Source: Candidatus Bipolaricaulia bacterium (GTDB lineage: Bacteria > Bipolaricaulota > Bipolaricaulia > JBHIAT01). From it: a stretch of 25,618 nucleotides of DNA. The stretch is from the NCBI GenBank assembly GCA_046758705.1, contig JBHIAT010000035.1, positions 1 through 25,618 of the forward strand, read 5' to 3'. Positions 5,541-22,411 of the stretch are shown piece after piece. A program made the position numbers and the translations under genes. Within the stretch, counting starts at the first letter, position 1; every line of letters begins with the position of its first letter. The notes under the pieces are model-generated. The model made no database searches and was not told the DNA's origin. It worked only from the letters and a program-made list of their open reading frames with translations.

Positions 5541-5541
5541 G

Positions 5542-6918: not shown

Positions 6919-7863
6919 TTGAAGCATCATAAAGTCGGCTTCACCTGGATATGGACAGCTTTCCTGATCCTGTGCATCGCCACACTTGGGATGCTCTCTA
7001 TCTATCTCATCTCAACCAGCCTGGAACAGGAGTTCGTCAATACCGCAGGGTGGCTTTCGCACGGGTTCGCCGATGAGGTCTCCCTGCACATCCTTGCAGG
7101 CAACGAAAACAAGTTGGACGCTTCGGTGAAACGGATGGTCAGGAACTATGTGCTCTATGCCCAGGTGGTGAAGGGAGGGGAGGTGCTTGCCGAAGATAGA
7201 ACCGGTGATGCGATCAATCTTGACCTTCCGGTTGCATCCCTGCCATCGGCGTTCAAGATGGAGAAGCGCAGGCTGCCAAGCGGAACCCCGTACATCGATA
7301 TGATCCGATCCTTACCGTTGCAGAACCCTGAGGATGGGGGAAAGGCTGAAAATTACGTTCGAATCGGAATCTCACTCTCTAAAGTGCGTGCCGAGGTGAG
7401 GGATGCTGCTTCGATCGTTTTGAGCGTCGGTTTCGCCTTGGTGATCGTGGGGATCCTCCTCAGCTTCTACCTTGCCAGGAGGATCTATGGGCCAGCGCAG
7501 GAGCTCGCGGGATCTGGGAACGCAGCCTTCTCTCCAACGATGAGCATCGTAAATTCGGATGGATCTATCCTGAAGGTAGGCGATCTGGTCATCGACGATG
7601 GGAACAAGGAGGTCCAGATTCGCAGGAAGCGGGTCGCCCTGTCGCCGAAGGAGTATCAGCTCGCCAAGCTGCTGGCCTCTGAGCCCGGTAAGGTATTCTC
7701 GGATCAGGAGATCCTGGACGCGGTCTGGACGGGGAATCACCTCGCCGTATCCAACGATGTCAAGAAATATATATACCTCCTCAGACAGAAGATAGAGGAG
7801 GATCCGGAAGACCCACAGATCATCCTGACGGTCAGGGGTTTCGGCTACAAGCTGTCGACTTAG
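6919..7863 (+). CDS. Membrane protein: TM - extracytoplasmic sensor-like domain - TM - C-terminal OmpR/PhoB winged-helix DNA-binding domain (paralog 1)
   Basis: Two hydrophobic stretches flank about 130 aa. The C-terminus 'VGDLVID...VALSPKEYQLAKLLASEPGKVFS..EILDAVW...YIYLLRQKIEEDPEDPQIILTVRGFGYKL' is a Trans_reg_C signature. No receiver or kinase motifs. TTG start with GGAGGT SD. Confidence 0.85.
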   Translation: MKHHKVGFTWIWTAFLILCIATLGMLSIYLISTSLEQEFVNTAGWLSHGFADEVSLHILAGNENKLDASVKRMVRNYVLYAQVVKGGEVLAEDRTGDAINLDLPVASLPSAFKMEKRRLPSGTPYIDMIRSLPLQNPEDGGKAENYVRIGISLSKVRAEVRDAASIVLSVGFALVIVGILLSFYLARRIYGPAQELAGSGNAAFSPTMSIVNSDGSILKVGDLVIDDGNKEVQIRRKRVALSPKEYQLAKLLASEPGKVFSDQEILDAVWTGNHLAVSNDVKKYIYLLRQKIEEDPEDPQIILTVRGFGYKLST

Positions 7864-7870
7864 CTTGCCG

Positions 7871-7936
7871 TTTCAATTCGCTTTCAACCGGTTTTTCACC
7901 GGTTTTCCATCGATCTTCTATAGTATTTCCATCCAA
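7871..7936 (+). promoter_or_regulatory. Six 11-bp-phased direct repeats with embedded TATAGT -10-like box
   Basis: tttcaattcgc|tttcaaccggt|ttttcaccggt|tttccatcgat|cttctatagta|tttccatccaa. TATAGT is at 7919-7924. There is also a perfect inverted repeat CCATCCAA-N8-TTGGATGG at 7929-7952. Confidence 0.6.
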
Positions 7937-7995
7937 ATATTCTGTTGGATGGTTGAGGATGGTTTAAAGATTATTACCCAACAGGGGGGGTATCG

Positions 7996-8901
7996 ATGAG
8001 ACAGGTGAAGCGCAAAGTCAAGGTCAAGACTGGGGTCCGGGTTGTCGGGGTCCTGGGGCTTGTCCTGCTGATCTGGTTTGGGATCTCGCAGCCGGCGTTC
8101 GCCCCGTACCACACAGCACCGCAGCCGCAGAGTCCAGCCCCCGCCCAGCTGGTCATCAACGAGGTGCTGTTCCTGCCGGAGTCGGGGGAGCAGTTGATCG
8201 AGATCGCCAACCTTGGCGAGTCCGAGGTAGATCTCTCCGGCTGGTTCCTGTGCAACCGGCCGAGTTACTGGGGAGTCCCGCGGGGCACGACGATCGGGCC
8301 GGGCGAGTTCCTGGTCGTTCACGTCGGGGTGCGGGGGGAGAACACTGAGACCGATCTGTTCGCCCCAGGCTTCGCTCGGCTCAACACCACCGCCGATGAG
8401 GTGGCGCTCTACTCCAGCAGCAACTTCAGCAGTTCCAGCGCACTCGTTGACTTCGTCCAGTGGGGAGCCGCCCGACAGCGTCCGACGCGGCTGGATGTGG
8501 CGATCTCGACTGGACAGTGGAACTCCGGGGAGTTCGTTGACGTAAGCGACCTTGAGGCCAGCCAGTCGATCGTCTACCAGGGAACGGGGGACGGTGCCGA
8601 CGCTTGGACCGTCGGCCTGGCGACGATCGGGGGCCCCAACGAACCGACGGTGGAAGTGGACATCCGGAACTTCGCCTTCCAGCCAGCGAATATTCGAGTA
8701 AAAGTTGGGACGATGGTCACTTGGGTTCAGCGGGATAACGTTCCGCACACAGTGACAAGCCGAACGGGCCTCTTCGATTCCGGCAATCTCTTGCTGGGCC
8801 AAAGCTTCACGTTCACGTTTGAGAAGCCGGGTAGCTACAACTACTACTGCAAGATTCACCCCTCCATGGAGGGGAAGGTCATTGTGGAGGAGGTGCCCTG
8901 A
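7996..8901 (+). CDS. Exported lamin-tail-domain + plastocyanin/amicyanin-type cupredoxin fusion
   Basis: Basic plus hydrophobic N-terminus. LTD motif 'LVINEV...IEIANLGESEVDLSGWFL'. Cupredoxin 'FAFQPANIRVKVGTMVTW...PHTVT...FTFTFEKPGSYNYYCKIHPSMEG' carries a complete H/C/H/M type-1 Cu set. Confidence 0.88.
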   Translation: MRQVKRKVKVKTGVRVVGVLGLVLLIWFGISQPAFAPYHTAPQPQSPAPAQLVINEVLFLPESGEQLIEIANLGESEVDLSGWFLCNRPSYWGVPRGTTIGPGEFLVVHVGVRGENTETDLFAPGFARLNTTADEVALYSSSNFSSSSALVDFVQWGAARQRPTRLDVAISTGQWNSGEFVDVSDLEASQSIVYQGTGDGADAWTVGLATIGGPNEPTVEVDIRNFAFQPANIRVKVGTMVTWVQRDNVPHTVTSRTGLFDSGNLLLGQSFTFTFEKPGSYNYYCKIHPSMEGKVIVEEVP

Positions 8902-9020: not shown

Positions 9021-9317
9021 ATGAGAAAAGTATTGACTGTCATCTTGGCTCTTGGCCTGATCGTCTCGGTCAATCCGTTAGTGATGGCGAGGAATGGTTC
9101 AGATGACGGGGACGGGCCTAAGCAACGGAGCTCAGAGATGAGCAGAAAGGTGCTGGTCGGGTTTACGATCGGCTTTTTGTCAGGAGTCATCAGCCATCTC
9201 TTCGGTGTGTCCCTTCTAAGTGACACCGATATCGCCATCCATCTGATCCTCGGGGGAATTGGAGCAATCGTTGGGTTCCTATCGGCGCAATTGGATGGGG
9301 GGAGCAGTGGGAACTGA
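9021..9317 (+). CDS. Small hypothetical membrane protein
   Basis: Strong SD AAGGAGGTGA, signal-like N-terminus, two Gly-rich hydrophobic segments. Confidence 0.65.
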   Translation: MRKVLTVILALGLIVSVNPLVMARNGSDDGDGPKQRSSEMSRKVLVGFTIGFLSGVISHLFGVSLLSDTDIAIHLILGGIGAIVGFLSAQLDGGSSGN

Positions 9318-9348
9318 CCGAATACCGGTAACACAGGATGGGCCGGCG

Positions 9349-10095
9349 ATGAACTCGGACCCACGGATTGAACTGGTCGAACGACTGTTTGCTGACACCG
9401 GGCCGACCTACGACCACATCGTCAACCTGTGTACCGCCGGGATTGACGGGCGGTGGAAGCGCAAGATCCTCGTCCAACTGCCGCCACAGCCCGAGCGGAT
9501 CGTGGATCTGGCAGCTGGCACGGGCATCCTGACCTTCGCCATCGCGCGGCGCTTCCCCGACTGTCACGTGATCGGCGTAGAGCTGCGTGCCGAGTACCTG
9601 GACATCGCCCGGGCCCGGGCCGCCCGCGAGCGCATGGCCAACGTCGAATTTATCCTGGGGCGGGCCGAGGAAGTTCGGCTACCGGACCCGGTGGATGCCA
9701 TCACCTCATCTTACCTGGCCAAGTACGCCGACCTACCCCGCTTGGCCCGCACTATGCACGAGATGCTGCGCGCTGGAGGGCTGATCGTGGCACATGAATT
9801 CACCCATCCCGCCCGACCGGTTCTGGTCTGGGCATGGGAACTCTATATGCAGGTGCTCCGGCGTCTGAGCAGCCGTCTATATCCGCAGTGGCAGACGATT
9901 TTCTACGAGTTGCCCGGTCTGATCAGGCAGACGACCTGGGTACAGGACCTGATGCACGCGCTGCGGACGGAAGGGTTTGTGGATATCCGCTTCGAACCGT
10001 TGACGCTGGGAGGTGCGGGGCTGATCACGGCGAGAAAGGGAACCGCAGCCGCCAAAGGAGCATCCCCAGTCCCAGCAGGATCACACCCAGGCTGA
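9349..10095 (+). CDS. Class I SAM-dependent methyltransferase, UbiE/MenG-like
   Basis: 'VERLF...YD..VNL.T.G.D.RWK', motif I 'IVDLAAGTGIL', 'GVEL', 'LRAGG'. ATG 9349 avoids overlap with the upstream gene. Confidence 0.85.
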   Translation: MNSDPRIELVERLFADTGPTYDHIVNLCTAGIDGRWKRKILVQLPPQPERIVDLAAGTGILTFAIARRFPDCHVIGVELRAEYLDIARARAARERMANVEFILGRAEEVRLPDPVDAITSSYLAKYADLPRLARTMHEMLRAGGLIVAHEFTHPARPVLVWAWELYMQVLRRLSSRLYPQWQTIFYELPGLIRQTTWVQDLMHALRTEGFVDIRFEPLTLGGAGLITARKGTAAAKGASPVPAGSHPG

Positions 10096-10753
10096 TGCTT
10101 TTCAAGATGCGCTCGTAGATCGCTGCGCTGCGCGGCCCGGCGGCGTCCTGACCTGGAGCGCGCTTGAGGACCTTGTAGGGGCGGGAGGCCGTGATCTCCA
10201 CCAAGCTGAACAAGCCGGCGGCCAACGCCACCAGCAGCGCGGCCAGCGACAGCCGGTTGGTCTGCATCACGTAGCCCGCCAGCACAGGCAGCACGCCCCA
10301 GGAGAAGAAGAACCAGCCGTCAGTGTGGAAGCGACCGTTGAACCACTCGAGGTTATAGGCAAATAGGAAGAAGAACTCCAGCAGGCCGATCGGCCATAAC
10401 AGGGGAGCATGGTAGAGGGCATAGTACCCGCCGATTACGGCGGCTGGCAGCGAGGTGAGTATCATCAGGCTCCACAACTGAGCCGGGCTGAAGTGTGTTG
10501 CCCACGGCTTGACGCCGCGACTGCCCAGCGCATCGAGCGCGTGGGCGGCGATACCCAGCGCCAGGAAATAGACGACCGCCAGCGCGCCGACGCGTTTCAT
10601 GTCAACTGACCCGGCCAGCGTTGCGCCGATGACCGTATAGGCGAGCACCATACCGGTGTAGGGCAGAAACAGCAGACCGACGAAAATGCGGAATTTGATC
10701 GGCCCGATGGATGGCACAAACCACTCTGTGTGGCGATCGTTCGTGTCTGGCAT
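10025..10753 (-). CDS. Polytopic membrane protein, possibly a divergent UbiA-superfamily member
   Basis: About 8 hydrophobic helices with 'LPYTGM..AY', 'AAHALDALG', 'FAYNLE..NGRFHTD.WF..SWG.LP'. The UbiA resemblance rests on helix and motif spacing only. Confidence 0.6.
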   Translation of the reverse strand: MPDTNDRHTEWFVPSIGPIKFRIFVGLLFLPYTGMVLAYTVIGATLAGSVDMKRVGALAVVYFLALGIAAHALDALGSRGVKPWATHFSPAQLWSLMILTSLPAAVIGGYYALYHAPLLWPIGLLEFFFLFAYNLEWFNGRFHTDGWFFFSWGVLPVLAGYVMQTNRLSLAALLVALAAGLFSLVEITASRPYKVLKRAPGQDAAGPRSAAIYERILKSISLGVILLGLGMLLWRLRFPFSP

Positions 10754-10996: not shown

Positions 10997-11971
10997 ATGA
11001 TGAAGGCCATGAAGATGAAAAACAGAAGGGTTTGGCTTGCCGTCATCGGGTCGGCCTCTCTGCTTGCAGTGATTACGGCACTTGCCATCTACATCCTCAC
11101 CGTGGGCGTGGAGCAGACGTTCACCGGAAGCGTCACATGGCTTGCCCATGCCTTTGCCGATGAGGCCTCCCGTTATATCGCGATGGCGGACCAAGATAAT
11201 CAAAACCCTCAGGAGACGTTACGACCCTGGGCCCAGAAGGTCGTGCAAGACTACTTGTTCTATGCGCAGGTCGTCAAAGATGGAAAAACCTTGGTGGAGG
11301 AGAAGGCCCCACAGGCGATCAACCTGGATCTGAACGTGGGAACCCCTTCTTCGGAGATGTCAGTTGTCAAGGGACGCCTGCCCGATGGGACGCCCTACTT
11401 AGATCTGATCAGAATCCTGGAGTCGTCTGATGGCAACGTCGATTCGGGGAGCTATCTCCGCATGGGGATCTCGCTGGCTCGTGTCCATTCGGGGGTCTGG
11501 ACGGGGACCTTGATCCTCGCCGGTGTTGGCCTGGCAGGCATCTTCAGCAGCTCCATCTTGATCTTCTATGTCGGTGGGGCGAGGGCAGCACGAGCGCCGG
11601 AGCCGGTGACTGTGCCCGAATTTGCATCGGTACGCGCTGGAGCTGCTGACAACAGGCAAGACGGGGACAACTCTCTCTGGAAGGTTGGCAAGCTGCAGAT
11701 CGATGATCGAAGCAAAAAGGTGCAGATCAATGGTCACAGTGTCAGGCTGACTCCTCGGGAATATGAGGTGTTGAAGCTGTTGGCCTCCGAGCCTGATAGG
11801 GTCTTCTCCAATCAAAAGATCATTGCCCAGGTCTGGCCGGAGAACTCAGTAGCTTCGGCCGATGACGTGCGCAAATATATCCGTTTTCTGAGGCATAAAC
11901 TGGAAGAGAACCCCACGCGCCCACAACTCATTCTCACCATAAAGGGCTTCGGCTACAAGCTCGCCCCTTAG
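10997..11971 (+). CDS. Membrane protein: TM - sensor-like domain - TM - C-terminal OmpR/PhoB winged helix (paralog 2)
   Basis: Same architecture as 6919-7863, with 'LTPREYEVLKLLASEPDRVFS...LRHKLEENPTRPQLILTIKGFGYKL'. Several possible in-frame start Mets. Confidence 0.85.
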   Translation: MMKAMKMKNRRVWLAVIGSASLLAVITALAIYILTVGVEQTFTGSVTWLAHAFADEASRYIAMADQDNQNPQETLRPWAQKVVQDYLFYAQVVKDGKTLVEEKAPQAINLDLNVGTPSSEMSVVKGRLPDGTPYLDLIRILESSDGNVDSGSYLRMGISLARVHSGVWTGTLILAGVGLAGIFSSSILIFYVGGARAARAPEPVTVPEFASVRAGAADNRQDGDNSLWKVGKLQIDDRSKKVQINGHSVRLTPREYEVLKLLASEPDRVFSNQKIIAQVWPENSVASADDVRKYIRFLRHKLEENPTRPQLILTIKGFGYKLAP

Positions 11972-12104: not shown

Positions 12105-12761
12105 ATGATGAAGCGTTCAGCCCAGTGGCTTACGGTCTTAGCGGTGTTGGTTGGAGGAGTGTTTCTCCTCACGAATCTGCAGACAGGGTTCCAAGGGGGG
12201 GACGTCTTGGCCCAGACTGGGGATGCAGAGCCCGGGTGCAAGCGGGGTGCCCCCGTTAAGGAGTTCTTCCTCATGACGGGCGAGTGGAAGCAGACCAAAG
12301 GCATTGAAAAAGATCGCGGAGTTCCGCTGGAAGAAGAAGATGGCACAACCGAGGTCGAACGCTACACCTTCGACCCCGGGACGGTCACCGTGAACGTCTG
12401 GGATTGCGTACGTCTCTTCATCCATGACATCCAGGGGAACCGTCACAGTACGGTGATCTTCGGCACCGCCGTCGACTCTGTCGAGGCTCCCATTGTGGAT
12501 GACCGGGGGAATGTGGTGGCCACAGCCGTCGAGCGTCCCAACCCCAACGCCGGGATCGACGGACCTAATCGGTTGGAAGACGGAGAGTTCGCCCGTGGCG
12601 AGCAGATCCTGTTGGAGTTCACACCGACCCAACCTGGTGTGCTGCAGCTCGTCTGCGAAATCCATACCTTCATCGATGAGGACGGCAACCTGAGGGGCTA
12701 TGACGATAAAGGTGAGCCCACCGGTGGACCGATGGTCGGTTACATCATCGTATTGCCCTAG
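12105..12761 (+). CDS. Exported cupredoxin-fold protein with long insertions
   Basis: Signal-like N-terminus, 'YTFDPGTVTVNV.D.VRL', 'GNRH', 'LEFTPTQPG...LVCEIH-x22-MVGYIIV'. SD GAGGTGA. Confidence 0.75.
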   Translation: MMKRSAQWLTVLAVLVGGVFLLTNLQTGFQGGDVLAQTGDAEPGCKRGAPVKEFFLMTGEWKQTKGIEKDRGVPLEEEDGTTEVERYTFDPGTVTVNVWDCVRLFIHDIQGNRHSTVIFGTAVDSVEAPIVDDRGNVVATAVERPNPNAGIDGPNRLEDGEFARGEQILLEFTPTQPGVLQLVCEIHTFIDEDGNLRGYDDKGEPTGGPMVGYIIVLP

Positions 12762-12777
12762 GAGTCGTTCAACGCAG

Positions 12778-12820
12778 AGCCGGGAAGCCCGGGTTTCCTC
12801 TTCCGGGCTTCCTGGCTTTT
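12778..12820 (+). terminator. Rho-independent terminator / stem-loop
   Basis: 15-bp stem AGCCGGGAAGCCCGG / CCGGGCTTCCTGGCT (one G-U pair), 10-nt loop, short T run. Confidence 0.75.
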
Positions 12821-12850
12821 CGCGTTTGTAAACGGAAGAGGAAACAAGCA

Positions 12851-13378
12851 TTGAAGCAGACGCTCGCAACCGGCGCGGTTCTCTTGGTCATGGCTGCCTT
12901 GATCGCCTGGATGCTTCAACGGGTGGCGGAGTATCCCGGCGTGGAGCGCTCCGTCGAGGGCCAGCTCCCCTCTTGGTTTGTGGGGGACACGCTCTCTGCT
13001 CAGCCCGCTCAGCCAAGCGCGGAGAGAGTAGAAAAGACGCCTGAGAAGAACCCATACGAGGACTACACCCTGATTACGGGCATGGAGGTAAAGATTGACG
13101 AAAGGGAGTACAAGCTGGAGCCCAACCAGATCCTGATCCAGGTCGAGGCGCTCCCGGCCACGGTCACGTTCGTTCTCCGCAACCGGGGCCGCGTCACCCA
13201 CGACTTTCGCGTCAAGGGCCACGGGCTAGATATCAAGGCTCCCAGGTTCGGCCCCAGACGCTCTCAAGAGCTTCAGGTGACCTTCGAGGAGCCGGGTGAG
13301 TATGAGATCACCTGTCCGTTGAGCAACCACGCCGAGCGCGGCATGCGGGGGACCTTGGCCATCCAGATTCAGGGGTGA
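12851..13378 (+). CDS. Membrane-anchored/exported cupredoxin
   Basis: N-terminal TM, 'VTFVLRNRGRVTHDF', 'VTFEEPGEYEITCPLSNHAERGMRGTL' (H...C-x4-H-x4-M). TTG start. The stop overlaps the next start. Confidence 0.85.
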   Translation: MKQTLATGAVLLVMAALIAWMLQRVAEYPGVERSVEGQLPSWFVGDTLSAQPAQPSAERVEKTPEKNPYEDYTLITGMEVKIDEREYKLEPNQILIQVEALPATVTFVLRNRGRVTHDFRVKGHGLDIKAPRFGPRRSQELQVTFEEPGEYEITCPLSNHAERGMRGTLAIQIQG

Positions 13379-14796
13379 GCGTGATGCCCGTCGACATCCC
13401 AATGTTGGGTGCCCGCAATGCCCTTTGGTTCGCTGCCCAGCTCCATCTCTTCTTTGCGGCGTTCGTGCTCGGCGCGCCCATTTTTATCGTCATCAGCGAA
13501 TGGCTGGGCCTGCGCACCCAAGATCCCCGTTACGAACGTCTGGCCAAAGAGACGATGAAAGTCGTGGCCATCGCCTACTCGCTCACCGCCATCTTTGGGG
13601 TGCTGTTTGCGTTCGTGCTCATGGGGCCGTATCAGCCGGTCACCAACTATCTGTTTAGAACGCTCTATCCCGTCTTTGCCCTGTACGGGCTCTTCATCTT
13701 GCTCGAGACCGTCTGCATGTACATTTACTGGTATACCTGGGAGCCTTGGAGCCAAACGGTGGCCCGCAAGCGTGCTCACATCGGGATCGGCGTTCTTTTA
13801 AACCTGCTGGGCACGATCGTGATGTTCCTGATGAACGCCGTGAGCGGCTTCATGAACACCCCGCCGAAAGAGATCGAGACGGCGAGCTTGTGGATGATGG
13901 TTAACAACGCCGCCTGGTGGCCCCTGAATCTGCACCGATTTCTGGGCAACGTGACCTTTGGCGGTTTCGTGGTAGCGCTCTTTGCAGCATTTATGTTTTT
14001 GACGTCGAGAGAAGAAGAGGACAGAGCATTCTACGACTGGATGGGCTATATCGGCAACTTGATCGGCGTGGGCACGCTCATGACGCTGCCCTTGGCCGGC
14101 TACATCCTTGCCAAGGATTTCTTTCTGTACGACGCACAGCTGGCCACCTTCATGATGGCCGACAAACTCTCAGGTTACTTCGTGACACAGGGGCTTTTGG
14201 TCGTGCTGCTCTTTCTGGGGGCGAACTATTACATGTGGCTATCGATGAAGCGCATCGAGGGGGGCATTCGTTTTGAGCCGCACATGAAGGCGATCTTCGC
14301 CGTGATGTTGGCGGGGGGCATCATCTGGATGGTACCCCAGAACTTCTTCCCAGATCTGCTGGCCCAGCCCCCGGCAGGGGTGAGCGAGGAGGTGTTGATC
14401 CTACCCGAGCGCTTTGCATTTTTGGGTCTGATGGTGGCCAAGGCGCTGGCCGTCACAGCCATCATCATCATGACCTTCGTGACCTATCTGCTCTATCGGC
14501 GCGCGCGCGCCACGGGCAAAATTTTATGGGGCCGTATCGACCCGATGGCCCAGTACGTGCTCATCTTTATCCCCGCGATCGCTGTGTATCTCATGGGGCT
14601 GATGGGAGCGATCCGCGAGCTCACCCGCATGGACTACCACATCTACGGCTTGGTCAAAGACATCACTCCCTACTGGTATACGGCCACGTTGGGCCATTCG
14701 TCGATCATGGCGGCGGTGACGACGGTGCTTTTCTTCGTGCTGCTGGCGTTCATCTTTTGGATCGGGTTTGTGTTGAGAGGGAGTGAGGAGGGCTGA
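13375..14796 (+). CDS. Cytochrome bd-like oxidase subunit I (non-canonical CydA homolog)
   Basis: About 10 TM helices. Helix I His in 'WFAAQLHLFFAAFVLG', then 'FILLET', 'SGFMNTP' and a second His in 'NLHRFLGN'. 'LMGAIRE..R' stands where canonical CydA has GRQPW. No Q-loop-like region. Confidence 0.8.
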   Translation: MSVMPVDIPMLGARNALWFAAQLHLFFAAFVLGAPIFIVISEWLGLRTQDPRYERLAKETMKVVAIAYSLTAIFGVLFAFVLMGPYQPVTNYLFRTLYPVFALYGLFILLETVCMYIYWYTWEPWSQTVARKRAHIGIGVLLNLLGTIVMFLMNAVSGFMNTPPKEIETASLWMMVNNAAWWPLNLHRFLGNVTFGGFVVALFAAFMFLTSREEEDRAFYDWMGYIGNLIGVGTLMTLPLAGYILAKDFFLYDAQLATFMMADKLSGYFVTQGLLVVLLFLGANYYMWLSMKRIEGGIRFEPHMKAIFAVMLAGGIIWMVPQNFFPDLLAQPPAGVSEEVLILPERFAFLGLMVAKALAVTAIIIMTFVTYLLYRRARATGKILWGRIDPMAQYVLIFIPAIAVYLMGLMGAIRELTRMDYHIYGLVKDITPYWYTATLGHSSIMAAVTTVLFFVLLAFIFWIGFVLRGSEEG

Positions 14797-15515
14797 TGAG
14801 CGATCCCGAGGTGTCGAAGGACCTGTGGCGGCGCATCAAGGGCCCGGTGATCTTCGCTCTGGTCGGCTTGGCTGTGATCTGGGGCCTGCTGCCGCGGGTG
14901 TCCCCAAGCTGGAGGATGCACTTCGGCGTGCCGTACCTGGTGTTTTTCAGTCTGGCCACACTCAGCGCCAGCCTGTTTTTCGTCCTGCTCAACTGGGGGC
15001 CGATCCGCCGGCCCGGCTCCCCCTTTGCCACCTTCGTCAGCATCTTGTTCGTCTGTGTGGCCACCGTCGGAGGGTTAGTGGCCTTTGGGCTCTGGTACTA
15101 TCCCCAGTTTGAGATCCCCCAGCCGGCTGCGGAGCAGGCAGAAGAGGAAGAGACGACGGCGGCCGAGGAGCAGGGCAGGGAGGTCTTTTTGGCGGCCGGC
15201 TGCATCGCGTGTCATTCGATTGAAGCGCTGGACATCCGTGGCGGGCAACGGGGGCCGGATCTCTCTCATGTAGGCAAGCAGGCTGAAACTCGCAAGCCCG
15301 GCATCTCCGCGGAAGCCTATCTCAGAGAGTCTATCGTGGACCCGTGGGCTTGCTTCACCCCCCTGCCGGGAAGTGGGCTCGTCAAGTGCCAGCCCGCGGC
15401 CGATCCCGCGAAGACTTATCCACAGATGATGCCCCCCGGCTTTGGAAATCGGCTGACCGAAGCGCAGCTTAACGATTTAATCGCTTTCTTAAAGAGCCTG
15501 AAAGGAACTCAATAG
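14796..15515 (+). CDS. Membrane-anchored monoheme cytochrome c
   Basis: Three N-terminal hydrophobic segments, 'GREVF...GCIACH', 'GPDLS', 'YLRESIVDP', axial 'MMP', 'LTEAQLNDLIAFL'. Confidence 0.9.
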   Translation: MSDPEVSKDLWRRIKGPVIFALVGLAVIWGLLPRVSPSWRMHFGVPYLVFFSLATLSASLFFVLLNWGPIRRPGSPFATFVSILFVCVATVGGLVAFGLWYYPQFEIPQPAAEQAEEEETTAAEEQGREVFLAAGCIACHSIEALDIRGGQRGPDLSHVGKQAETRKPGISAEAYLRESIVDPWACFTPLPGSGLVKCQPAADPAKTYPQMMPPGFGNRLTEAQLNDLIAFLKSLKGTQ

Positions 15516-15516
15516 C

Positions 15517-15963
15517 GTGGCGGGGTCGAAGCGTCCAAGAGTCGAAGGAGCTAAAGGCGCTCTGACCTCCGGGGATATCGCCTGGGGATCGGTTTTCGTT
15601 GGTTACGGCATCGCTGTGCTAGGCACGCTGCTCTTTGGGGGCCTGGGGCTGTTTGTGATGGATAAGGGGATGTGGTGGGTGGCCAACTGGGGCCTGGGCT
15701 TTTTGCTGCTGGGGGGCCTTGTAGCAGGCTTTTCAGCCAAGACAACCGAACCCTTAAACGGTGCGTTTATCGCCGTCTTCTACTTTGCGACGGCCACTTT
15801 GATCATCTTTATCGAGGAGTTTCTCAACATCTTGCCGGATCCGTTGCCCGGCCTGCCACGAGGGGACTCGACATTCTTCTTCGTCTGGCCGCTGGGCCAG
15901 CTGGTGGCGGCTACCGTGGGAGCCAGTCTGGGTGGCTGGTTCGCTGTCAAGCGGAGGAGGTGA
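15517..15963 (+). CDS. Small integral membrane protein (~4 TM), unknown function
   Basis: Gly-rich hydrophobic helices and a 'PDPLPGLPRGDSTFFF' loop. Packed 1 and 6 nt from its neighbours. Confidence 0.75.
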   Translation: MAGSKRPRVEGAKGALTSGDIAWGSVFVGYGIAVLGTLLFGGLGLFVMDKGMWWVANWGLGFLLLGGLVAGFSAKTTEPLNGAFIAVFYFATATLIIFIEEFLNILPDPLPGLPRGDSTFFFVWPLGQLVAATVGASLGGWFAVKRRR

Positions 15964-15969
15964 GCGCGG

Positions 15970-16857
15970 ATGAAGACGTATCGGGAGATCGCCGGTGACG
16001 GCGGGTCAGATATTCTCGGCCAGGTCGCCGAGCAGCAGGTGCGTTTGCGCGCTCGTATGGCTCAGATCACCCACAAGCTCGCGATCATGAGTGGCAAGGG
16101 CGGCGTGGGCAAGAGCGTGGTCACGGCTAATCTCGCCGTCACCTTGGCACGAAGTGGATTGAAGGTGGGCGTTCTAGATGCGGACATCAACGGGCCTTCC
16201 ATCGCCAAGATGCTGGGGGTGCAGGAGCAGTCTTTGGAAATCAGCAACAGGGACGTCGTCCCTATCCACGGGCCTTTGGACATCAAAGTGATCTCTATGG
16301 ATCTCCTTTTACCTCAGGATGAGACGCCGGTGGTCTGGGACGCCCCAACCCAACATGATCCCTTCATCTGGAGAGGCGCGATCGAAGTCAGCACCCTGAG
16401 AGAGTTCCTTGCCGATACTGACTGGGGCGAGCTGGATTTTCTCCTCATCGATCTGCCGCCAGGCCCCGATCGGTTGCCCAATATCTCTGACTTACTTCCG
16501 GATCTGTGCGCGATCGTGGTGACCATCCCTTCGGAGGTCGCACAACGGACGGTGAAGAAATCCGTTGTCTTGGTTCAGGAACTGAAGGTGCCGCTGATCG
16601 GACTGGTGGAAAACATGGCCGGCTATCTTTGCCCTCAGTGTGGTGCGCTGGGAGAACTCTTCCCAGGCGATGGGAAGGAGCTAGCGAAAGCCCTCGACAT
16701 GGCCTTCTTAGGGAAGATCCCCTTCGATCCTCAAATCACCCGATGCTTCGATCAGGGTGTTCCCTTTATGATCGCACATGGGGAGACCCCAGCGGGCCGA
16801 GCGTTCGCCCAGATCGCCGAGAAGATCGAGGCGTTTCTCAACGGGAGGGAGCGATGA
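15970..16857 (+). CDS. Mrp/ApbC/NBP35-family Fe-S carrier ATPase
   Basis: Deviant Walker A 'SGKGGVGKS', 'LDADINGPS', 'WRG', 'WGELDFLLIDLPPG', 'ENMAGYLCPQCG'. Confidence 0.93.
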   Translation: MKTYREIAGDGGSDILGQVAEQQVRLRARMAQITHKLAIMSGKGGVGKSVVTANLAVTLARSGLKVGVLDADINGPSIAKMLGVQEQSLEISNRDVVPIHGPLDIKVISMDLLLPQDETPVVWDAPTQHDPFIWRGAIEVSTLREFLADTDWGELDFLLIDLPPGPDRLPNISDLLPDLCAIVVTIPSEVAQRTVKKSVVLVQELKVPLIGLVENMAGYLCPQCGALGELFPGDGKELAKALDMAFLGKIPFDPQITRCFDQGVPFMIAHGETPAGRAFAQIAEKIEAFLNGRER

Positions 16858-17246
16858 AGTTCCTGTGTGTGGAGTGTGATGAAGCCATGAAGTTCGTGGA
16901 GGCTGAAGGGCCGGAGGAGGGCTCGCTGTCAGTTCTCTTTCGTTGCTCCCGCTGTGGCCAGACAGTGGCCCTGTTGACCAATCCCTGGGAGACCCAATTG
17001 GTTCGCAGTTTGGGGGTTGTGATCGGTGGGCAGACGGTTCCCCCGGAGCCCCTACAGTTGGTCCGAACGTCCCTGGTCGACAGCAAGCTTCTCTGGACGG
17101 AGGAGGCGGAGGAGTGCTTAAAGCGGGTGCCCGAGTTCGCCCGGTCCATGGCGCGCCGAAGTATTGAGCGTTATGCTCGCGAGCGGGACTATTGGGAAAT
17201 TACCCCAGAAGTGATGGATGAGGCGAGAGCCGAGCTGGGCTTGTGA
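16854..17246 (+). CDS. Cys4 (zinc-ribbon-like) protein with C-terminal PCP_red-like domain, 130 aa
   Basis: ATG 16854 overlaps the Mrp stop, with GGGAGG SD. 'CVEC...CSRC'. C-terminal 'WTEEAEECLKRVPEFARSMARRSIERYARE....EITPEVMDEAR'. Confidence 0.82.
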   Translation: MKFLCVECDEAMKFVEAEGPEEGSLSVLFRCSRCGQTVALLTNPWETQLVRSLGVVIGGQTVPPEPLQLVRTSLVDSKLLWTEEAEECLKRVPEFARSMARRSIERYARERDYWEITPEVMDEARAELGL

Positions 17247-17252
17247 GGTGAG

Positions 17253-18545
17253 ATGATGAGCGGATCTACGAAGGATCGCCCCCAGGTCGTCTCCTGGAAC
17301 CTGACTCAAGGGTGTAACTTACGATGTCCCCATTGTTATCTCGCCGCTGGACGGCCTGCTGAGGACGAGCTGACGACTGAAGAGGGTCTGGAGCTGATCG
17401 ATCGGCTGGCCGAGGCAGGGACGCAGTTGCTCATCCTCACAGGCGGCGAGCCCCTGCTGCGCCGCGATCTATGCACGCTGGCCCGCCATGCCGCTGATCG
17501 TGGCCTGATGGTCGTCCTGGGCACCAACGGGACGTTGATCGACGGGAAGACAGCCAAAAGACTCAAAGAAAGCGGCGTGCAGGGCATAGGGATCAGCCTA
17601 GATTCCCTTGCTCCAGCGAAGCACGACGCCTTCCGCGGTCTGCGGGGCGCCTGGGAGAAAGCCATCTGCGCTCTCAAGATATGCGTAAAGCAGGGTCTAG
17701 AAGTCGTGGTACAGACGAGCGTGCTGCCCATGAACTATGAGGAGATTCCCCAGTTGATCGCCTTTGCCTACGAGACGGGGGCGCGGGCCTTCAATGCTTA
17801 CTTTCTTGTCTGCACAGGACGAGGCGAACAGCTAACCGATATTACTCCGCAGCAATATGAGGCACTTCTTAACCACTTGATAGACGCGCAAGCACGATAT
17901 TCGGACGAACAGCGAGGCTTCCTCGTGCGAGCCAAGTGCGCCCCACACATCCAGCGCCTGGCTTATGAGCGGTTAAACAGCCAGGCAGTTCAACAGTCCT
18001 TGGCTGCAATGGGGGCGGTTGGGCTTTTGGCCAGCGTCGGCTGCCCGGCGGGCACTCACTACCTGAGGATCACTCCCCAAGGTGACGTCACCCCCTGCCC
18101 CTATCTGCCCGTTGTGCTGGGAAACGTCCGCCATTCCAGGTTGCGTCAGATCTGGGAGAGCTCCGAAGTTTTGCAGAAGTTGCGCACTTTAGAGCTTGGG
18201 GGCCGCTGTGGGGCCTGCGAGTTCAAGCAGCGATGCGTCGGCTGCCGCGCGCGGGCCTTTGCTTTAAGTGGGGATCTACTGGGCGAGGACCCATGGTGCA
18301 CGTACCAACCGGGGTGGGCCGATCACAAACAGGCTGAAGGATCTCATCCCGTTTGGACCCTCGAAGCGCGAGCGCGGCTGGAGAAGATCCCGTCGTTCAT
18401 TCGGGGGCGTGTCCAGGAAGGCCTCGAAGCGTACGCGCGTGCCCGCGATCTGCATCAGATCACACCCGAGCTGCTTGCGGAGCTACGGGCTGCCTGCTTG
18501 CGAAAGAAAAAGAAGAAAAAGGACGAGAAAGACAGGCATGTATAA
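17253..18545 (+). CDS. Radical SAM/SPASM protein, AhbD/NirJ-like, with C-terminal PCP_red-like domain
   Basis: 'WNLTQGCNLRCPHCY', 'LTGGEPLLR', 'TNG', 'ISLDS...HD.FRG', 'FLVCTGRG', 'KCAPH'. SPASM cysteines 'CPAG...PCPY...CGACE...CVGCRARA...DPWC'. Tail 'WTLEARARLEKIPSFIRGRV'. Confidence 0.88.
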   Translation: MMSGSTKDRPQVVSWNLTQGCNLRCPHCYLAAGRPAEDELTTEEGLELIDRLAEAGTQLLILTGGEPLLRRDLCTLARHAADRGLMVVLGTNGTLIDGKTAKRLKESGVQGIGISLDSLAPAKHDAFRGLRGAWEKAICALKICVKQGLEVVVQTSVLPMNYEEIPQLIAFAYETGARAFNAYFLVCTGRGEQLTDITPQQYEALLNHLIDAQARYSDEQRGFLVRAKCAPHIQRLAYERLNSQAVQQSLAAMGAVGLLASVGCPAGTHYLRITPQGDVTPCPYLPVVLGNVRHSRLRQIWESSEVLQKLRTLELGGRCGACEFKQRCVGCRARAFALSGDLLGEDPWCTYQPGWADHKQAEGSHPVWTLEARARLEKIPSFIRGRVQEGLEAYARARDLHQITPELLAELRAACLRKKKKKKDEKDRHV

Positions 18546-19776
18546 GCGTATTCTGGTCGCGATCGACAACTCAAAATACGCCGAGCGGGCCGCTGAACTG
18601 GCCGTGGAGTTGGCACACGGGTTGCGCGCGCAGCTCAGCGGCGTACACGTGACCAACGCCGAACTGCACACTTATGCCTTTCGCTTGCTGGAAGGCACTC
18701 TGCCTGAGCGCTATCAAACTGAAGAAGTTTTACAAAAACAGCGCGAGATTCACGAAGATCTTATCCGTCGCGGGCTCACGCTCATCAGCGATTCTTACTT
18801 AGAGCAACTGCGGCAGCGGGCTCAAGCGGCAAGGGTTGCCTGCGAGACTCAGGTGTTAGAGGGCTGGCACTACGAAGCGTTATCTGGTGAAGTCATGGAT
18901 GAGGAGTATGATCTGGCCGTCTTCGGGCACCTGGGCTTGGGTGCCTGTGAGCGTTCAATGCTCGGCGGTGTAGTAGAGCGGGTGACCCGCCGCATCCGAA
19001 AAGACTTGCTCGTGGTAAAGAACAATAGGGCTCTAGAAGACGGCAAGATCCTCGTCGCGGTAGACGGCTCGGAGTGCTCGTTCTGGGCGCTGCGCAAGGC
19101 GATCGTTTTGGCGCAAAGATTTCAAGCCCAACTGCATGCTGTGCACGTCTTCGATCCGGACTTTCACCGCACGATCTTTCAAGAGTTGGTGGGGGTGCTT
19201 AGTAGAGAGGCTGCAGAGGTCTTCGATTTTGAGGAACAGCAGGAGTTGCACGACAAGGTGATCGACAAGGGATTAGAGCAGGTGGGTCAGAGGGTGTTGC
19301 GGAGCTGCGAGCTGGCAGCAGAACACGGCGGCATCCCGATTCAGACGGAGCTTCTCAAGGGAAAATTCTTCGAGGAGATCGTTGATATGGCTGAGATGCG
19401 GGAGCCAACACTTTTGGTCGTGGGACGCTTTGGCCGACACCGAGTTGAATCTTCAGACTTGGGCAGCACGGCGGAGAACATACTGCGCTTGACACCCTGT
19501 AGCGTGCTGGTCGTGAGCACCGATGTGCCTGAAGCAATGAAACACTTCAAGACCCCACAGCAGGAAGCGAGTGCACTACCTTTAAGCTGGACGGCCGAAG
19601 CGGAAGCGATAATCCAACGGGTGCCTGACTTCGTGCAGAAGCTGGCTCGGGCAGCCATCGAAGCGTGGGCCCGTCACCGTGGCCTGCAAGAAGTTCAAGC
19701 GATGCACATCGAGCAGGCGATGAAGGAGCTGCTACCGGAGAAGATGTGGCGCAGGATGCTCAAGGAGGATCCATGA
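18538..19776 (+). CDS. Tandem-domain universal stress protein with C-terminal PCP_red-like domain, 412 aa
   Basis: 'MYKRILVAIDNS', 'GHLGLG...LGGVVERV', second domain 'KILVAVDGS', 'GRFG...LGSTAENILR..PCSVLVV'. Tail 'WTAEAEAIIQRVPDFVQKLARAAIE'. True start is ATG 18538. Confidence 0.9.
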   Translation: MYKRILVAIDNSKYAERAAELAVELAHGLRAQLSGVHVTNAELHTYAFRLLEGTLPERYQTEEVLQKQREIHEDLIRRGLTLISDSYLEQLRQRAQAARVACETQVLEGWHYEALSGEVMDEEYDLAVFGHLGLGACERSMLGGVVERVTRRIRKDLLVVKNNRALEDGKILVAVDGSECSFWALRKAIVLAQRFQAQLHAVHVFDPDFHRTIFQELVGVLSREAAEVFDFEEQQELHDKVIDKGLEQVGQRVLRSCELAAEHGGIPIQTELLKGKFFEEIVDMAEMREPTLLVVGRFGRHRVESSDLGSTAENILRLTPCSVLVVSTDVPEAMKHFKTPQQEASALPLSWTAEAEAIIQRVPDFVQKLARAAIEAWARHRGLQEVQAMHIEQAMKELLPEKMWRRMLKEDP

Positions 19777-21426: not shown

Positions 21427-21453
21427 CTGTAGTGGAAGGAGCGTAGGACATAG

Positions 21454-21483
21454 GAGGCCCCCTCCTCTGAGGGAGGGGGCCTC
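21454..21483 (+). other. Intercistronic stem-loop after the binding-protein gene
   Basis: Perfect 12-bp stem GAGGCCCCCTCC / GGAGGGGGCCTC, 6-nt loop, no T tract. This fits an mRNA-stabilising hairpin. Confidence 0.7.
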
Positions 21484-21511
21484 TACTCATTCGGATCATT
21501 CGGAGGGCTCC

Positions 21512-22411
21512 ATGGAGTTCTTCACCGCTCAGGCGGTCAACGGGCTGGTCATCGGTCTGCTCTATGCGCTGATGGCCGTCGGCCTGTCGCTGATCTTTTC
21601 GGTGTTGAAGCTGGTCAACTTCGCCCACGGTGAGTTCTACATGATGGGCGCGTTTGTCTCCTATTACCTGGCCACCCTGTTCGGGGTCCATCCGATCCTG
21701 TCCGTCTTCCTGGCGATCGTCGCGGTCTTTTTGATCGGTGTGGTGATCCAGTCCCTGTTCCTCCGCCCCCTGTACACCGGAACGGTCGAGCGCAAGGACG
21801 AGTACGCGATATTGATCACCTTCGGGCTGGGGATCTTCCTCCAGAATCTGGCGATGTCCGTCTTCGGACCCTGGACCAAGAAGCCTCCGGACTTCATGTC
21901 GGGAACCACGGTCATGGGATTCCTGACGGTGGACAACAACCGACTGATCGTCTCTGGAGCGGCGATCGTCATCGTGGTGACACTGTTGTTGATCATCGGC
22001 GCGACGTTTGTGGGAAAGGCCCTGCGAGCGGTAAGCCAGGATCGGGATGCCGCAGCGATCGTAGGGATCAATCCGCACCGCATGAACCTGTTGGCGTTCG
22101 GAATCGGGGTGGCGTTGGCCGGTGGCGCCGGGGCGCTCATCGGCCCGATCTTCCTCATTTCGCCGGTTATGGGCCTCCTGCCCGGGATCAAGTCGTTCGT
22201 CATCATCGTCCTGGGGGGGATGGGCTCCATCAAGGGGGCGATCATCGGCAGCCTCCTACTCGGTGAGATCGAGAGCTTGGGTTCGGTCTACTTCTTCGAT
22301 ATGACCAGGGGCCTGGCCTACAAGAACGCCTTCGGGGTGTTGCTGTTGGCGATCATCCTGTTGGTGAGGCCGACCGGGCTCTTCGGTGAGCGACACGTGC
22401 GAATGAAGTGA
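21512..22411 (+). CDS. livH: HAAT ABC permease, LivH-like
   Basis: 'NGLVIGLLYALMAVGLSLIF..LKLVNFAHGEFYMMGA', 'GKALRAVSQD', 'VLGGMGSI.GA'. Confidence 0.9.
   Translation: MEFFTAQAVNGLVIGLLYALMAVGLSLIFSVLKLVNFAHGEFYMMGAFVSYYLATLFGVHPILSVFLAIVAVFLIGVVIQSLFLRPLYTGTVERKDEYAILITFGLGIFLQNLAMSVFGPWTKKPPDFMSGTTVMGFLTVDNNRLIVSGAAIVIVVTLLLIIGATFVGKALRAVSQDRDAAAIVGINPHRMNLLAFGIGVALAGGAGALIGPIFLISPVMGLLPGIKSFVIIVLGGMGSIKGAIIGSLLLGEIESLGSVYFFDMTRGLAYKNAFGVLLLAIILLVRPTGLFGERHVRMK

Follow-up and report, generated by a model that had tools for sequence, protein, structure and literature searches.

A candidate periplasm-fed, bd-like (OR-N-type) terminal oxidase operon on a Candidatus Bipolaricaulia contig

Introduction

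What is the role of a protein resembling CydA, the heme-bearing subunit I of cytochrome bd, when no CydB is encoded beside it and its gene overlaps those of a cupredoxin and a cytochrome c? The question is raised by a stretch of 25,618 nucleotides from a Candidatus Bipolaricaulia bacterium (GenBank assembly GCA_046758705.1, contig JBHIAT010000035.1, positions 1 to 25,618; hereafter the window, meaning this whole stretch). An original prediction, made from the sequence alone, had described four forward-strand genes at 12851-15963 as a CydB-less bd-like oxidase coupled to a cupredoxin and a cytochrome c. The analysis presented here extends this unit to nine genes, and we judge it somewhat probable that 12105-19776 is the operon of a quinol-independent, periplasm-fed bd-like (OR-N-type) terminal oxidase together with its maturation genes.

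The OR-N group corresponds to the "bd-like oxidases" of Nitrospirota and Nitrospinota (Murali, Gennis & Hemp 2021; Lücker et al. 2010, 2013). These enzymes are described by Murali et al. (2021 bioRxiv) as being without a quinol site, and other electron donors have been proposed for them there.

Results

Gene content and junctions of the operon

Nine genes on the forward strand were treated as one operon (12105-19776), wider than the four-gene unit of 12851-15963, because the run of coupled genes extends to both sides of that unit. The genes and the evidence on which each was named are as follows.

12105-12761, forward strand: cupredoxin A, membrane-anchored or secreted, with a predicted nitrosocyanin-like fold (AlphaFold2 model and Foldseek)
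12851-13378, forward strand: cupredoxin B, a putative N-terminally anchored type-1 copper protein (weak Pfam and PDB matches, ligand pattern)
13375-14796, forward strand: CydA-like (bd-like, OR-N-type) heme subunit with about 11 transmembrane (TM) helices (CydA fold, aligned ligand positions)
14796-15515, forward strand: membrane-anchored monoheme cytochrome c with three TM helices (PF00034, E = 2.6e-11; one CxxCH at residues 136-140)
15517-15963, forward strand: 4-TM putative accessory subunit of no known family (four TM segments by hydropathy)
15970-16857, forward strand: Mrp/ApbC/NUBPL-type Fe-S cluster carrier ATPase (Pfam ParA (NUBPL), E = 1.8e-77)
16854-17246, forward strand: small Zn-ribbon-PCP_red protein (Pfam PCP_red, E = 3.6e-18, 65.8 bits against a cutoff of 32.5)
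17253-18545, forward strand: radical SAM/SPASM enzyme of the AhbD/NirJ group with a C-terminal PCP_red domain (Radical_SAM 3.7e-30, SPASM 5.3e-11, PCP_red 1.6e-12)
18538-19776, forward strand: tandem Usp protein with a C-terminal PCP_red domain (Pfam Usp, E = 4.3e-46 in two stretches; PCP_red, E = 3.3e-11)

The four open reading frames (ORFs) of the inner unit, encoding 175, 473, 239 and 148 amino acids, have the overlapping or abutting stop and start codons that had been claimed for them. Read directly, the TGA stop of cupredoxin B (13376-78) overlaps the GTG start of the CydA-like gene at 13375; an alternative ATG start lies at 13384, and the database copy of the protein (P0001) has 470 amino acids. 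The next junction is the TGATG at 14794-98, and the TAG stop of the cytochrome c gene (15513-15) is followed by the GTG start of the 4-TM gene at 15517. The earlier delimitation of the gene set was correct for these four genes and their strand; it had missed cupredoxin A, which lies upstream across a gap of 89 bases, and the co-conserved genes that continue downstream to 19776. From the 4-TM gene through the Mrp, Zn-ribbon, radical SAM and Usp genes the gaps are +6, -4, +6 and -8 bases, such that the ATG of the Zn-ribbon gene (16854) overlaps the Mrp stop and the ATG of the Usp gene (18538) overlaps the end of the radical SAM gene by 8 bases. These are real genes and not chance ORFs, as judged by conserved synteny and by the 2492 homologues that reached E<=1e-3 in a scored set of 8000 candidates. 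Consensus scans of the window for promoters (3 found, 3.3 expected) and terminators (13 found, 8.9 expected) were at chance level, and Rfam returned no RNA family in the window.

The CydA-like heme subunit

The product of 13375-14796 matched Pfam Cyt_bd_oxida_I (PF01654) with E = 1.8e-16 and 60.2 bits against a cutoff of 26.2, the match spanning only profile positions 3-237 of 418. At E<=1, phmmer found only two matches in the PDB, 9r2g_A (1.2e-6) and 5doq_A (3.7e-6), both of them bd subunit I and covering only residues 10-267, the N-terminal half of the protein. An AlphaFold2 model built from 46 family sequences had a mean predicted local distance difference test score (pLDDT) of 86.7 and a predicted template modeling score (pTM) of 0.85. 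The ten best Foldseek matches of this model in the PDB were all bd subunit I chains, with query-normalized template modeling scores (TMq) of 0.44-0.60 and sequence identities of 13-16%.

Ligand residues were mapped by BLAST, hhalign and MAFFT alignments, with E. coli cydAB as the reference after its landmark residues had been verified.

H24: E. coli H19 (BLAST, hhalign, MAFFT)
Y104: position of E. coli E99 (BLAST, hhalign, MAFFT)
E111: E. coli E107 (BLAST, hhalign, MAFFT)
H135: E. coli H126 (BLAST, hhalign, MAFFT)
H187: E. coli H186 (BLAST, hhalign, MAFFT)
M353: E. coli M393 (MAFFT and a weak local BLAST segment)
R418: E. coli R448 (MAFFT)

All seven residues are invariant in 46 of 46 CydA-like family members. 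With the family profile set against E. coli CydA, hhalign aligned only residues 14-137 (probability 28%), and the C-terminal part of the mapping therefore rests on MAFFT. The two histidines at heme-ligand positions that had been noticed in the original prediction are thus H24 (H19) and H187 (H186), and in the sequence alignments H24, H187 and M353 stand opposite the three E. coli ligands H19, H186 and M393. The catalytic core would be a single CydA-like protein in which the b558 ligand pair H187/M353, near the periplasmic face, is by alignment retained, as are the active-site helices 1-4 with H24, E111 and H135. From the proton-channel Glu pair of E. coli (E99 and E107) only E107 is kept, as E111. 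Between positions 104 and 111 there is a one-residue deletion relative to E. coli, followed by invariant Y116, Y118 and Y120. Toward the C-terminus, E415 precedes R418 by three residues, the same spacing as that of E445 before R448 in E. coli. The protein had been said to lack GRQPW, which is only partly right because a remnant is left around R418: the literal string is absent, while the pattern G411 ... R418-(Q/M)-D-(W/Y)-H422 keeps the invariant arginine that corresponds to R448.

No Q-loop could be aligned in the region between the H187 and M353 helices. The model places four helices there (214-235, 238-261, 263-292 and 297-319), and the Q-loop is replaced by the helices of 238-319, two of which are extra hydrophobic TM segments; by hydropathy the protein has 11 TM segments, the nine of CydA plus two. 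The earlier statement that the Q-loop is missing thus agrees with both the predicted helices and the hydropathy profile. Because the protein has a single Cys (C114), it can hold no CxxCH motif.

As the original prediction had it, neither cydB nor a second cydA was found in the window. Neither the window nor any of 25 related loci gave a match to E. coli CydB, and a family hidden Markov model (HMM) run on the six-frame translation gave one copy in the window; in each of the 25 loci it likewise gave one CydA-like frame, the copy in L012 being split by a frameshift. The CydA-like profile aligned to E. coli CydB by hhalign had a probability of 0.6%, a weak test given the single-sequence template.

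Place in the bd superfamily

An exhaustive search of 1.84 billion representative sequences found 892 proteins with E<=1e-3; of these, 399 reached E<=1e-10 and 87 reached E<=1e-30. A maximum-likelihood tree of 60 rows was built from the window protein, 12 family members out of the 120 listed, 45 of 150 representatives, the bd-like protein of a Thermodesulfovibrionia genome (L025), and E. coli CydA as the outgroup. The representatives included were at least 400 amino acids long and covered most of the query, fragments being left out, and support was given by the Shimodaira-Hasegawa-like approximate likelihood ratio test (SH-aLRT) only. The window family formed one clade of 13 rows with an SH-aLRT of 99. 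Its sister clade (support 91) holds proteins of 519-700 amino acids and the Thermodesulfovibrionia (Nitrospirota) sequence, and outside these two clades are many proteins of 550-890 amino acids. The end branch leading to E. coli CydA measured 5.5 changes per column, compared with a median end branch of 0.55.

Because the tree held a single canonical sequence, the separation from canonical CydA rests on this distance together with the missing Q-loop and the partial Pfam match. The view that the protein is not a canonical quinol oxidase subunit is upheld by its 13-16% identity to solved CydA chains, the long E. coli branch and its place in a divergent bd-like radiation. Among the 46 rows outside the window clade in a 52-row alignment, His24 is found in 44, His187 in 44 and Met353 in 38, and position 104 is Tyr in 33 and Glu in 8. 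Homologues of one long representative came from Chloroflexi, Rokubacteria, TA06, Myxococcota, Tectomicrobia, Brocadiia, Acidobacteriota and Methylomirabilales, with no Nitrospira name among the 120 matches listed for it. By sequence, then, the CydA-like protein belongs to the bd-like/OR-N-type radiation.

Cupredoxins, cytochrome c and the 4-TM protein

Cupredoxin A had no sequence match in Pfam, NCBIfam or the PDB. Its AlphaFold2 model (11 sequences, pLDDT 76.8) is all-beta, and the best Foldseek match was nitrosocyanin (1ic0_A; E = 2e-5, target-normalized template modeling score (TMt) 0.77), followed by cupredoxin domains of NirK and multicopper oxidases and by AcoP. H107, H114, C184, H187 and M210 of this protein are invariant in 11 of 11 sequences. 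Cupredoxin B has an N-terminal hydrophobic anchor and matched Pfam Cupredoxin_1 with E = 8e-5 and 23 bits, under the 27-bit cutoff. Its best PDB match was 4hcf_A, "Cupredoxin 1" (E = 1.4e-4), after which came CuA domains of cytochrome oxidase subunit II and pseudoazurins. The ligand pattern H117...C155-x4-H160-x4-M165 aligned across its homologues, several of which, from Chloroflexi, have a Cys directly after the hydrophobic N-terminal segment. By fold and by their His/Cys/His/Met set, both cupredoxins have what would be expected of type-1 copper proteins. A role in copper homeostasis was considered on account of a weak CopI match (28 bits against a cutoff of 280) and was rejected because the cupredoxin is translationally coupled to the heme subunit.

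Two loci from Fraserbacteria carry an extra cupredoxin-B-like gene downstream in the cluster, at 9780-10163 of L001 (35% identity over 54% of the query) and at 11639-12244 of L003 (33% over 45%).

The cytochrome c has C136, C139, H140, M212 and P213 invariant in 20 of 20 sequences. A FixO match (E = 5e-6, under the cutoff) covered residues 79-141, and residues 78-144, comprising the last TM helix and the heme site, gave weak PDB matches to cbb3 subunit II. The cytochrome c profile also matched the C-terminal domains of 4 of 150 representative bd-like relatives, which are natural fusions of the two proteins (P0124, E = 5e-22; P0167, 2.8e-23; P0137, 1.9e-12; P0178, 4.5e-7); four more fusions were seen among relatives of P0125 for which both cytochrome c and bd Pfam domains are precomputed.

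In the window clade the cytochrome c domain also carries a 17-residue insertion at about 185-200 with two extra cysteines, C186 and C198, that are absent from the Chloroflexi-type homologues. From its sequence, this insertion may be a disulfide-stapled loop.

The 4-TM protein matched no family in Pfam or NCBIfam, and its best score in the protein Atlas, 0.88, is within the range of shuffled proteins (mark 0.9). A periplasmic loop between TM3 and TM4 (residues 107-126) is strongly conserved, with P107, P109, P111, G112, D117, S118, F122, W124, P125 and L126 invariant in 20 of 20 sequences; in some Chloroflexi the gene sits upstream of the CydA-like gene. A predicted complex of three chains, in which the 4-TM protein was the partner scored, reached 0.74, against 0.06 for the best of 3 controls. 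A mark of 0.74 was reached by 116 of 157 solved complexes and by 2 of 215 mismatched pairs, a calibration that holds only roughly here because our own alignments and three chains were used. The runs agreed in at least 81% of contacts, and the pLDDT of the 4-TM partner was at least 74. The predicted interface joins residues 240-247, 299-300 and 346-380 of the CydA-like protein to residues 78-104 and 115-129 of the 4-TM protein; on the CydA-like side of the model these residues belong to the M353 helix and to the stretch taking the place of the Q-loop.

In solved bd structures CydB lies on the other side of CydA, and the small subunits CydX and CydS lie near heme b558. Since the predicted interface is at the M353 helix, opposite the face that CydB takes, the 4-TM protein looks in the model like a b558-side accessory subunit rather than a CydB substitute. 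The earlier suggestion that it might stand in for subunit II was not borne out: its predicted place is on the b558 side, and its profile aligned to E. coli CydB by hhalign had a probability of 0.1%, the same value as the cytochrome c profile, both being weak tests with a single-sequence template.

Synteny in related loci

The 25 related loci were taken from species-representative genomes, and a gene was scored as present when a homologue of the window gene was found. By identity of the CydA-like protein, the loci range from Fraserbacteria metagenome-assembled genomes (MAGs; 87%) and groundwater MAGs labeled Betaproteobacteria or Acidobacteria (82-85%) through Chloroflexi and Anaerolineae (52-62%) and a Thermaerobacter-labeled MAG (57%) to the Thermodesulfovibrionia genome L025 (44%). 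Named sources of the wider family are Chloroflexi, Dehalococcoidia, Anaerolineales and "Betaproteobacteria" MAGs, where the protein is labeled "cytochrome ubiquinol oxidase subunit I". Homologues of the other operon genes were distributed as follows.

Cytochrome c: 23 of 25 loci
Usp-PCP_red: 22 of 25 loci
Cupredoxin B: 20 of 25 loci
4-TM protein: 20 of 25 loci
Radical SAM enzyme: 19 of 25 loci
Zn-ribbon-PCP_red: 13 of 25 loci
Mrp: 11 of 25 loci
Cupredoxin A: 11 of 25 loci

Many of the misses come from contig ends: one flank is limited to 0-2 bases in L009, L019, L022, L023 and L024, and the downstream flank of L020 to 658 bases. Of the two loci without a cytochrome c homologue, one ends at the CydA-like gene and the other has a different, diheme c, and four of the five loci without cupredoxin B have at most 2 bases of upstream sequence. 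The coupling of the bd-like protein to a cytochrome c that had been proposed is thus seen in 23 of 25 loci and again in the fusions among 4 of 150 representatives, and the coupling to a cupredoxin recurs, as cupredoxin B, in 20 of 25 loci.

The most distant locus, L025, lacks both a cupredoxin and the 4-TM protein, and its cytochrome is of another kind. Its order is rhodanese, sulfur-transport protein, molybdopterin oxidoreductase, Fe-S subunit, bd-like protein and diheme cytochrome c, followed by a metallo-beta-lactamase-fold protein, Usp-PCP_red and radical SAM-PCP_red.

Within L025, positions 1866-8620 hold a molybdopterin oxidoreductase of 916 amino acids and a 4Fe-4S subunit before the bd-like gene, and a diheme c of 407 amino acids after it. 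Judged by these neighbors, the L025 bd-like protein looks like the membrane partner of a sulfur-compound molybdoenzyme.

Downstream genes with PCP_red domains

The PCP_red domain, which forms the C-terminal part of subunit B of protochlorophyllide reductase (PDB matches 2xdq_B and 2ynm_D), occurs three times in the operon. In the small protein at 16854-17246 it follows four N-terminal Cys in two CxxC pairs, resembling a zinc ribbon. The radical SAM enzyme, whose translation contains the motif C21-x3-C25-x2-C28, had NirJ2 (332 bits) and the heme b synthase AhbD (315 bits) as its best NCBIfam matches. Its structural neighbors in the Atlas include radical SAM proteins fused to siroheme-decarboxylase-like domains, and Atlas clusters that combine Radical_SAM, SPASM and PCP_red come most commonly from Methylomirabilota, Nitrospirota, Acidobacteriota and Pseudomonadota. 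For the Mrp protein, NCBIfam MrpORP scored 272.6 bits, under its cutoff of 450.

We infer that the downstream genes would serve the bd-like protein, most simply by an oxygen-independent synthesis or delivery of its heme cofactor, since the Usp and radical SAM genes stay with the bd-like gene in L025 despite its changed donors. Full-text literature searching found no published link of bd-like proteins to AhbD-type radical SAM enzymes or to PCP_red.

Other features of the window

A possible regulator lies directly upstream of the operon.

10997-11971, forward strand: possible regulator with two TM segments by hydropathy and a C-terminal OmpR-type winged helix (Trans_reg_C, E = 6.9e-21, residues 247-322)

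Of the 25 loci only two, L001 and L003, have its homologue on the upstream side of the cluster, and its link to the cluster is therefore weak. A paralogue of the same architecture (6919-7863, forward; Trans_reg_C, E = 8.5e-22) is followed at 7996-8901 (forward) by a cupredoxin of 301 amino acids with an N-terminal anchor, a Lamin Tail Domain and an amicyanin-like domain. The arrangement of these two regulator-cupredoxin pairs suggests paralogous one-component regulators that may control copper-protein genes.

Elsewhere in the window, the DnaB helicase gene at 196-2862 (reverse; 888 amino acids) is split by an intein with a LAGLIDADG homing endonuclease (Intein_splicing, LAGLIDADG_3). The gene for MoaE, the large subunit of molybdopterin synthase (5542-5964, forward), is followed by a gene of the AmmeMemoRadiSam system protein B/MEMO1 family (5868-6824, forward); the two overlap by about 100 bases as called, and the partner radical SAM and AMMECR1 genes are not among the genes found in the window. 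A UbiE/MenG-type quinone methyltransferase gene (9259-10095, forward) converges with an overlap of about 70 bases on 10025-10753 (reverse), which encodes a six-TM protein of 242 amino acids without a Pfam or NCBIfam family; neither was matched in the related loci. ARAGORN called a tRNA-Leu (anticodon GAG) at 21436-21514 (forward) in a gene cluster for a Liv/Urt-type ABC transporter, between the substrate-binding and the first permease genes and overlapping the permease start by 3 bases. This may be a false call, because Rfam gave no tRNA at its gathering score.

Discussion

Gene content, fold, ligand conservation, synteny and natural fusions are matters of observation, and the mechanism proposed on them would run as follows. 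Taken up on the periplasmic side by two membrane-tethered type-1 copper proteins and the anchored monoheme cytochrome c, electrons would pass to heme b558 and move onward to the active-site hemes. There O2, the presumed acceptor, would be reduced with cytoplasmic protons, and energy would be conserved by charge separation as in cytochrome bd. The 4-TM protein, packed in the prediction on the M353 helix and on the stretch that stands where the Q-loop would be, would have a role like that of CydX or CydS rather than CydB, and the Mrp, Zn-ribbon-PCP_red, radical SAM-PCP_red and Usp-PCP_red proteins would supply the heme cofactor by a route that needs no oxygen. An operon of cupredoxin, cytochrome c and oxidase is a pattern of organisms respiring high-potential donors, according to accounts of nitrite in Nitrospira (PMC6606698) and of manganese in Ca. 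Manganitrophus. No donor-oxidizing enzyme was found among the window genes in Pfam and NCBIfam scans. Iron in Acidithiobacillus is a further example of respiration with a high-potential donor.

The closest relatives in the literature are the OR-N proteins. The likeness to them is in the absent quinol site, the first four helices kept together with H19, and TM helices in place of the Q-loop. It is also in the operon, where cytochrome c and cupredoxins would serve as alternative donors and where there is a single cydA, as in OR-N2, which according to Murali et al. (2021) is often without a second one. The same source gives the one-residue deletion between the two Glu positions and the Tyr residues following it for OR-C/OR-N and qOR3/4; the window protein has this deletion with conserved Tyr after it, and a Nitrospirota sequence stands in its sister clade. 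It differs in size and topology, its approximately 470 amino acids and 11 TM helices matching neither the 10 helices given for N3-N5 nor the 14 given for N1/N2 (Murali et al. 2021). It also differs in forming a clade of its own (SH-aLRT 99), mostly of Chloroflexi-type, Fraserbacteria and similar MAGs, and in having Glu415 where most longer relatives have Ser. From OR-C it is set apart by having no heme c motif, the heme c domain being a separate gene that is fused in some relatives.

A similar list of parts has been published for the clusters of nitrite oxidoreductase (NXR) genes. In the nxr clusters described by Lücker et al. (2013, PMC3578206), a single bd-like oxidase is accompanied by two cupredoxin-like proteins, by cytochromes c of the mono- and diheme types and by a putative protein of the zinc-finger kind, and the bd-like protein is reported there to have TM helices where the Q-loop would be. 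In Nitrospira, Nitrospina and Kuenenia, bd-like genes are described as sharing clusters with genes for cupredoxins and for membrane-bound cytochromes c (PMC3578206, PMC6606698), blue copper proteins are mentioned in the nxr cluster (PMC11791136), and such clusters are reported to be highly expressed in Nitrospira (Mundinger et al. 2019, PMC6606698). The likeness drawn here is to that published description; in contrast to it, the window holds no NXR or other molybdoenzyme, and 14 TM helices are given for the nxr bd-like protein.

Canonical cytochrome bd (CydABX of E. coli; 6rko, 6rx4, 7oy2 and 5doq) shares the fold, with TMq up to 0.60, and the conserved positions of H19, E107, H126, H186, M393 and R448, whereas the CydA-like protein has no CydB and no Q-loop, a Tyr at E99, a GRQPW remnant and two extra TM helices, and its operon partners are periplasmic redox proteins. 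Resemblances to heme-copper oxidases are functional analogies. The TM-anchored monoheme c is weakly similar to CcoO of cbb3 oxidases over the anchor helix and CxxCH, and the membrane-anchored cupredoxin B, with its weak CuA-domain matches, recalls the cupredoxin subunit II of aa3 and ba3 oxidases. The catalytic subunits of those enzymes are unrelated, however, the copper site here would be mononuclear type 1 (one Cys) and not binuclear CuA, and the cytochrome has three TM helices where CcoO has one. AhbD and NirJ, of siroheme-dependent heme b and heme d1 synthesis, share the radical SAM and SPASM architecture of the operon enzyme, which differs from them in scoring below the cutoffs, in its extra C-terminal PCP_red and in having the bd-like operon rather than ahb or nir genes as neighbors.

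Several observations weigh against an O2-reducing enzyme of the kind proposed. As PMC10839748 presents it, no member of the bd-like/OR-N radiation has been shown to reduce O2. The position of E. coli E99 is an invariant Tyr (Y104) in 46 of 46 family members. MAFFT sets E. coli E445 opposite L409 and treats residues 412-417 as an insertion; E415, the candidate by spacing, is Glu in 40 of the 46 and Ser in 6, and most longer relatives carry Ser there in the MAFFT alignment. The axial Met of cupredoxin B (M165) is Ser in several Chloroflexi copies, and the sister-clade gene of L025 adjoins a molybdoenzyme in a likely anaerobe, a setting that suits an electron-transfer module equally. Such a module, in which a bd-like heme b anchor would connect periplasmic carriers with the quinone pool or another partner and no oxidase would be involved, is the main rival, one we take to be unlikely but deserving of weight. 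It is favored by the L025 neighbors, where the bd-like gene comes directly after the molybdopterin oxidoreductase and Fe-S subunit in the manner of the membrane subunit of a complex iron-sulfur molybdoenzyme (CISM), and by published NXR-linked proposals: a role of this sort is discussed for the NXR-cluster bd-like protein (Lücker et al. 2013, PMC3578206), and an anchor or reverse-flow role is proposed for bd-like_3 (Mundinger et al. 2019, PMC6606698). The Tyr at E99 and the ambiguous E445 position fit it too. Yet the protein has neither quinol-site residues nor a Q-loop, the invariance of H24, E111 and H135 in all 46 members would be needless for a mere anchor, and no dehydrogenase or reductase partner lies in the window, the 24 clade loci having been screened only for homologues of window genes. 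An oxidant other than O2 (NO, a nitrite-derived species or peroxide), used in detoxification or anaerobic respiration, seems to us very unlikely. It would agree with the many carriers that are groundwater MAGs of often-anaerobic lineages (Dehalococcoidia, Thermodesulfovibrionia), with the linked O2-independent radical SAM enzyme, with a Y104 that could alter active-site chemistry, and with the discussion of canonical bd in NO and O2 detoxification (PMC10839748). Against it, no NO-reductase-specific feature was found in the sequence, and the only relatives by fold and sequence are bd oxidases. High-potential carriers such as type-1 copper proteins and cytochrome c are typical feeders of O2 reductases, and on this general ground the carriers of the window operon also speak for O2. 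That the protein is after all a canonical quinol-oxidizing bd subunit I, with its cydB elsewhere in the genome, is hardly credible: the public label "cytochrome ubiquinol oxidase subunit I" and a Pfam match above cutoff are what it has in its favor, set against a match confined to profile positions 3-237 of 418, the missing Q-loop, 13-16% identity to solved CydA, an E. coli branch of 5.5 against a median of 0.55 changes per column, and no cydB within 6 kb in 25 loci.

The part played by the downstream genes can be weighed separately from the oxidase. The radical SAM, PCP_red, Usp and Mrp genes might be a neighboring housekeeping unit, for instance one supplying the O2-independent heme b synthase (AhbD) of the organism, or an unrelated stress module, which would leave the oxidase part unchanged; we find this doubtful, though it is a serious contender. 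AhbD, at 315 bits, is close to the best NCBIfam match of the radical SAM enzyme, which scores under the cutoff of 500 for both families, and proteins combining Radical_SAM, SPASM and PCP_red occur in several large clusters from many phyla. The Mrp and Zn-ribbon genes were found in only 11 and 13 of 25 loci, L001 has neither the radical SAM nor the Usp gene in 6 kb of downstream sequence, and in L021 the radical SAM gene is on the other strand. On the other hand, the linkage persists at 44-89% CydA-like identity across differently labeled phyla (Chloroflexi, Fraserbacteria, "Betaproteobacteria" and "Acidobacteria" MAGs, Thermodesulfovibrionia) and is kept in L025 with different donor genes; the window genes overlap or abut, and both NCBIfam scores are well under the equivalog cutoffs. 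A bolder version of the maturation reading, which we regard as quite improbable, is that the radical SAM enzyme, the three PCP_red proteins and Mrp form a dedicated O2-independent route that makes or inserts a modified heme for bd-like oxidases, which could be a d-type chlorin or an undescribed heme. If this were true, the operon would hold a missing cofactor-biosynthesis route of the bd superfamily, and the invariant Y104 would mark altered active-site chemistry.

A periplasm-fed bd-like oxidase is not new as a kind, because the protein belongs to the known, biochemically uncharacterized bd-like/OR-N radiation. What is new here is the larger operon with a second cupredoxin, a 4-TM subunit and the co-conserved set of radical SAM, PCP_red, Usp and Mrp genes, and also a compact clade outside the nitrite oxidizers, with about 470 amino acids and 11 TM helices, in which an invariant Tyr at E99 is combined with Glu415. 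Bd-like (OR-N-type) proteins are regarded as the principal terminal oxidases of bacteria that oxidize nitrite or manganese, yet none is known to have been purified or assayed. The window clade is the most compact form seen, with a heme subunit of 470 amino acids, a monoheme c, one or two cupredoxins and a 4-TM subunit, and this compactness and its wide spread (the 2492 homologues) therefore make it a practical target for expression and cryo-electron microscopy. Metabolic reconstructions of groundwater MAGs, those of Chloroflexi type among them, are probably led astray by the public label "cytochrome ubiquinol oxidase subunit I". A testable lead is offered by the conserved link to AhbD/NirJ-like radical SAM and PCP_red genes on how heme may be made or inserted without O2 in the bd superfamily.

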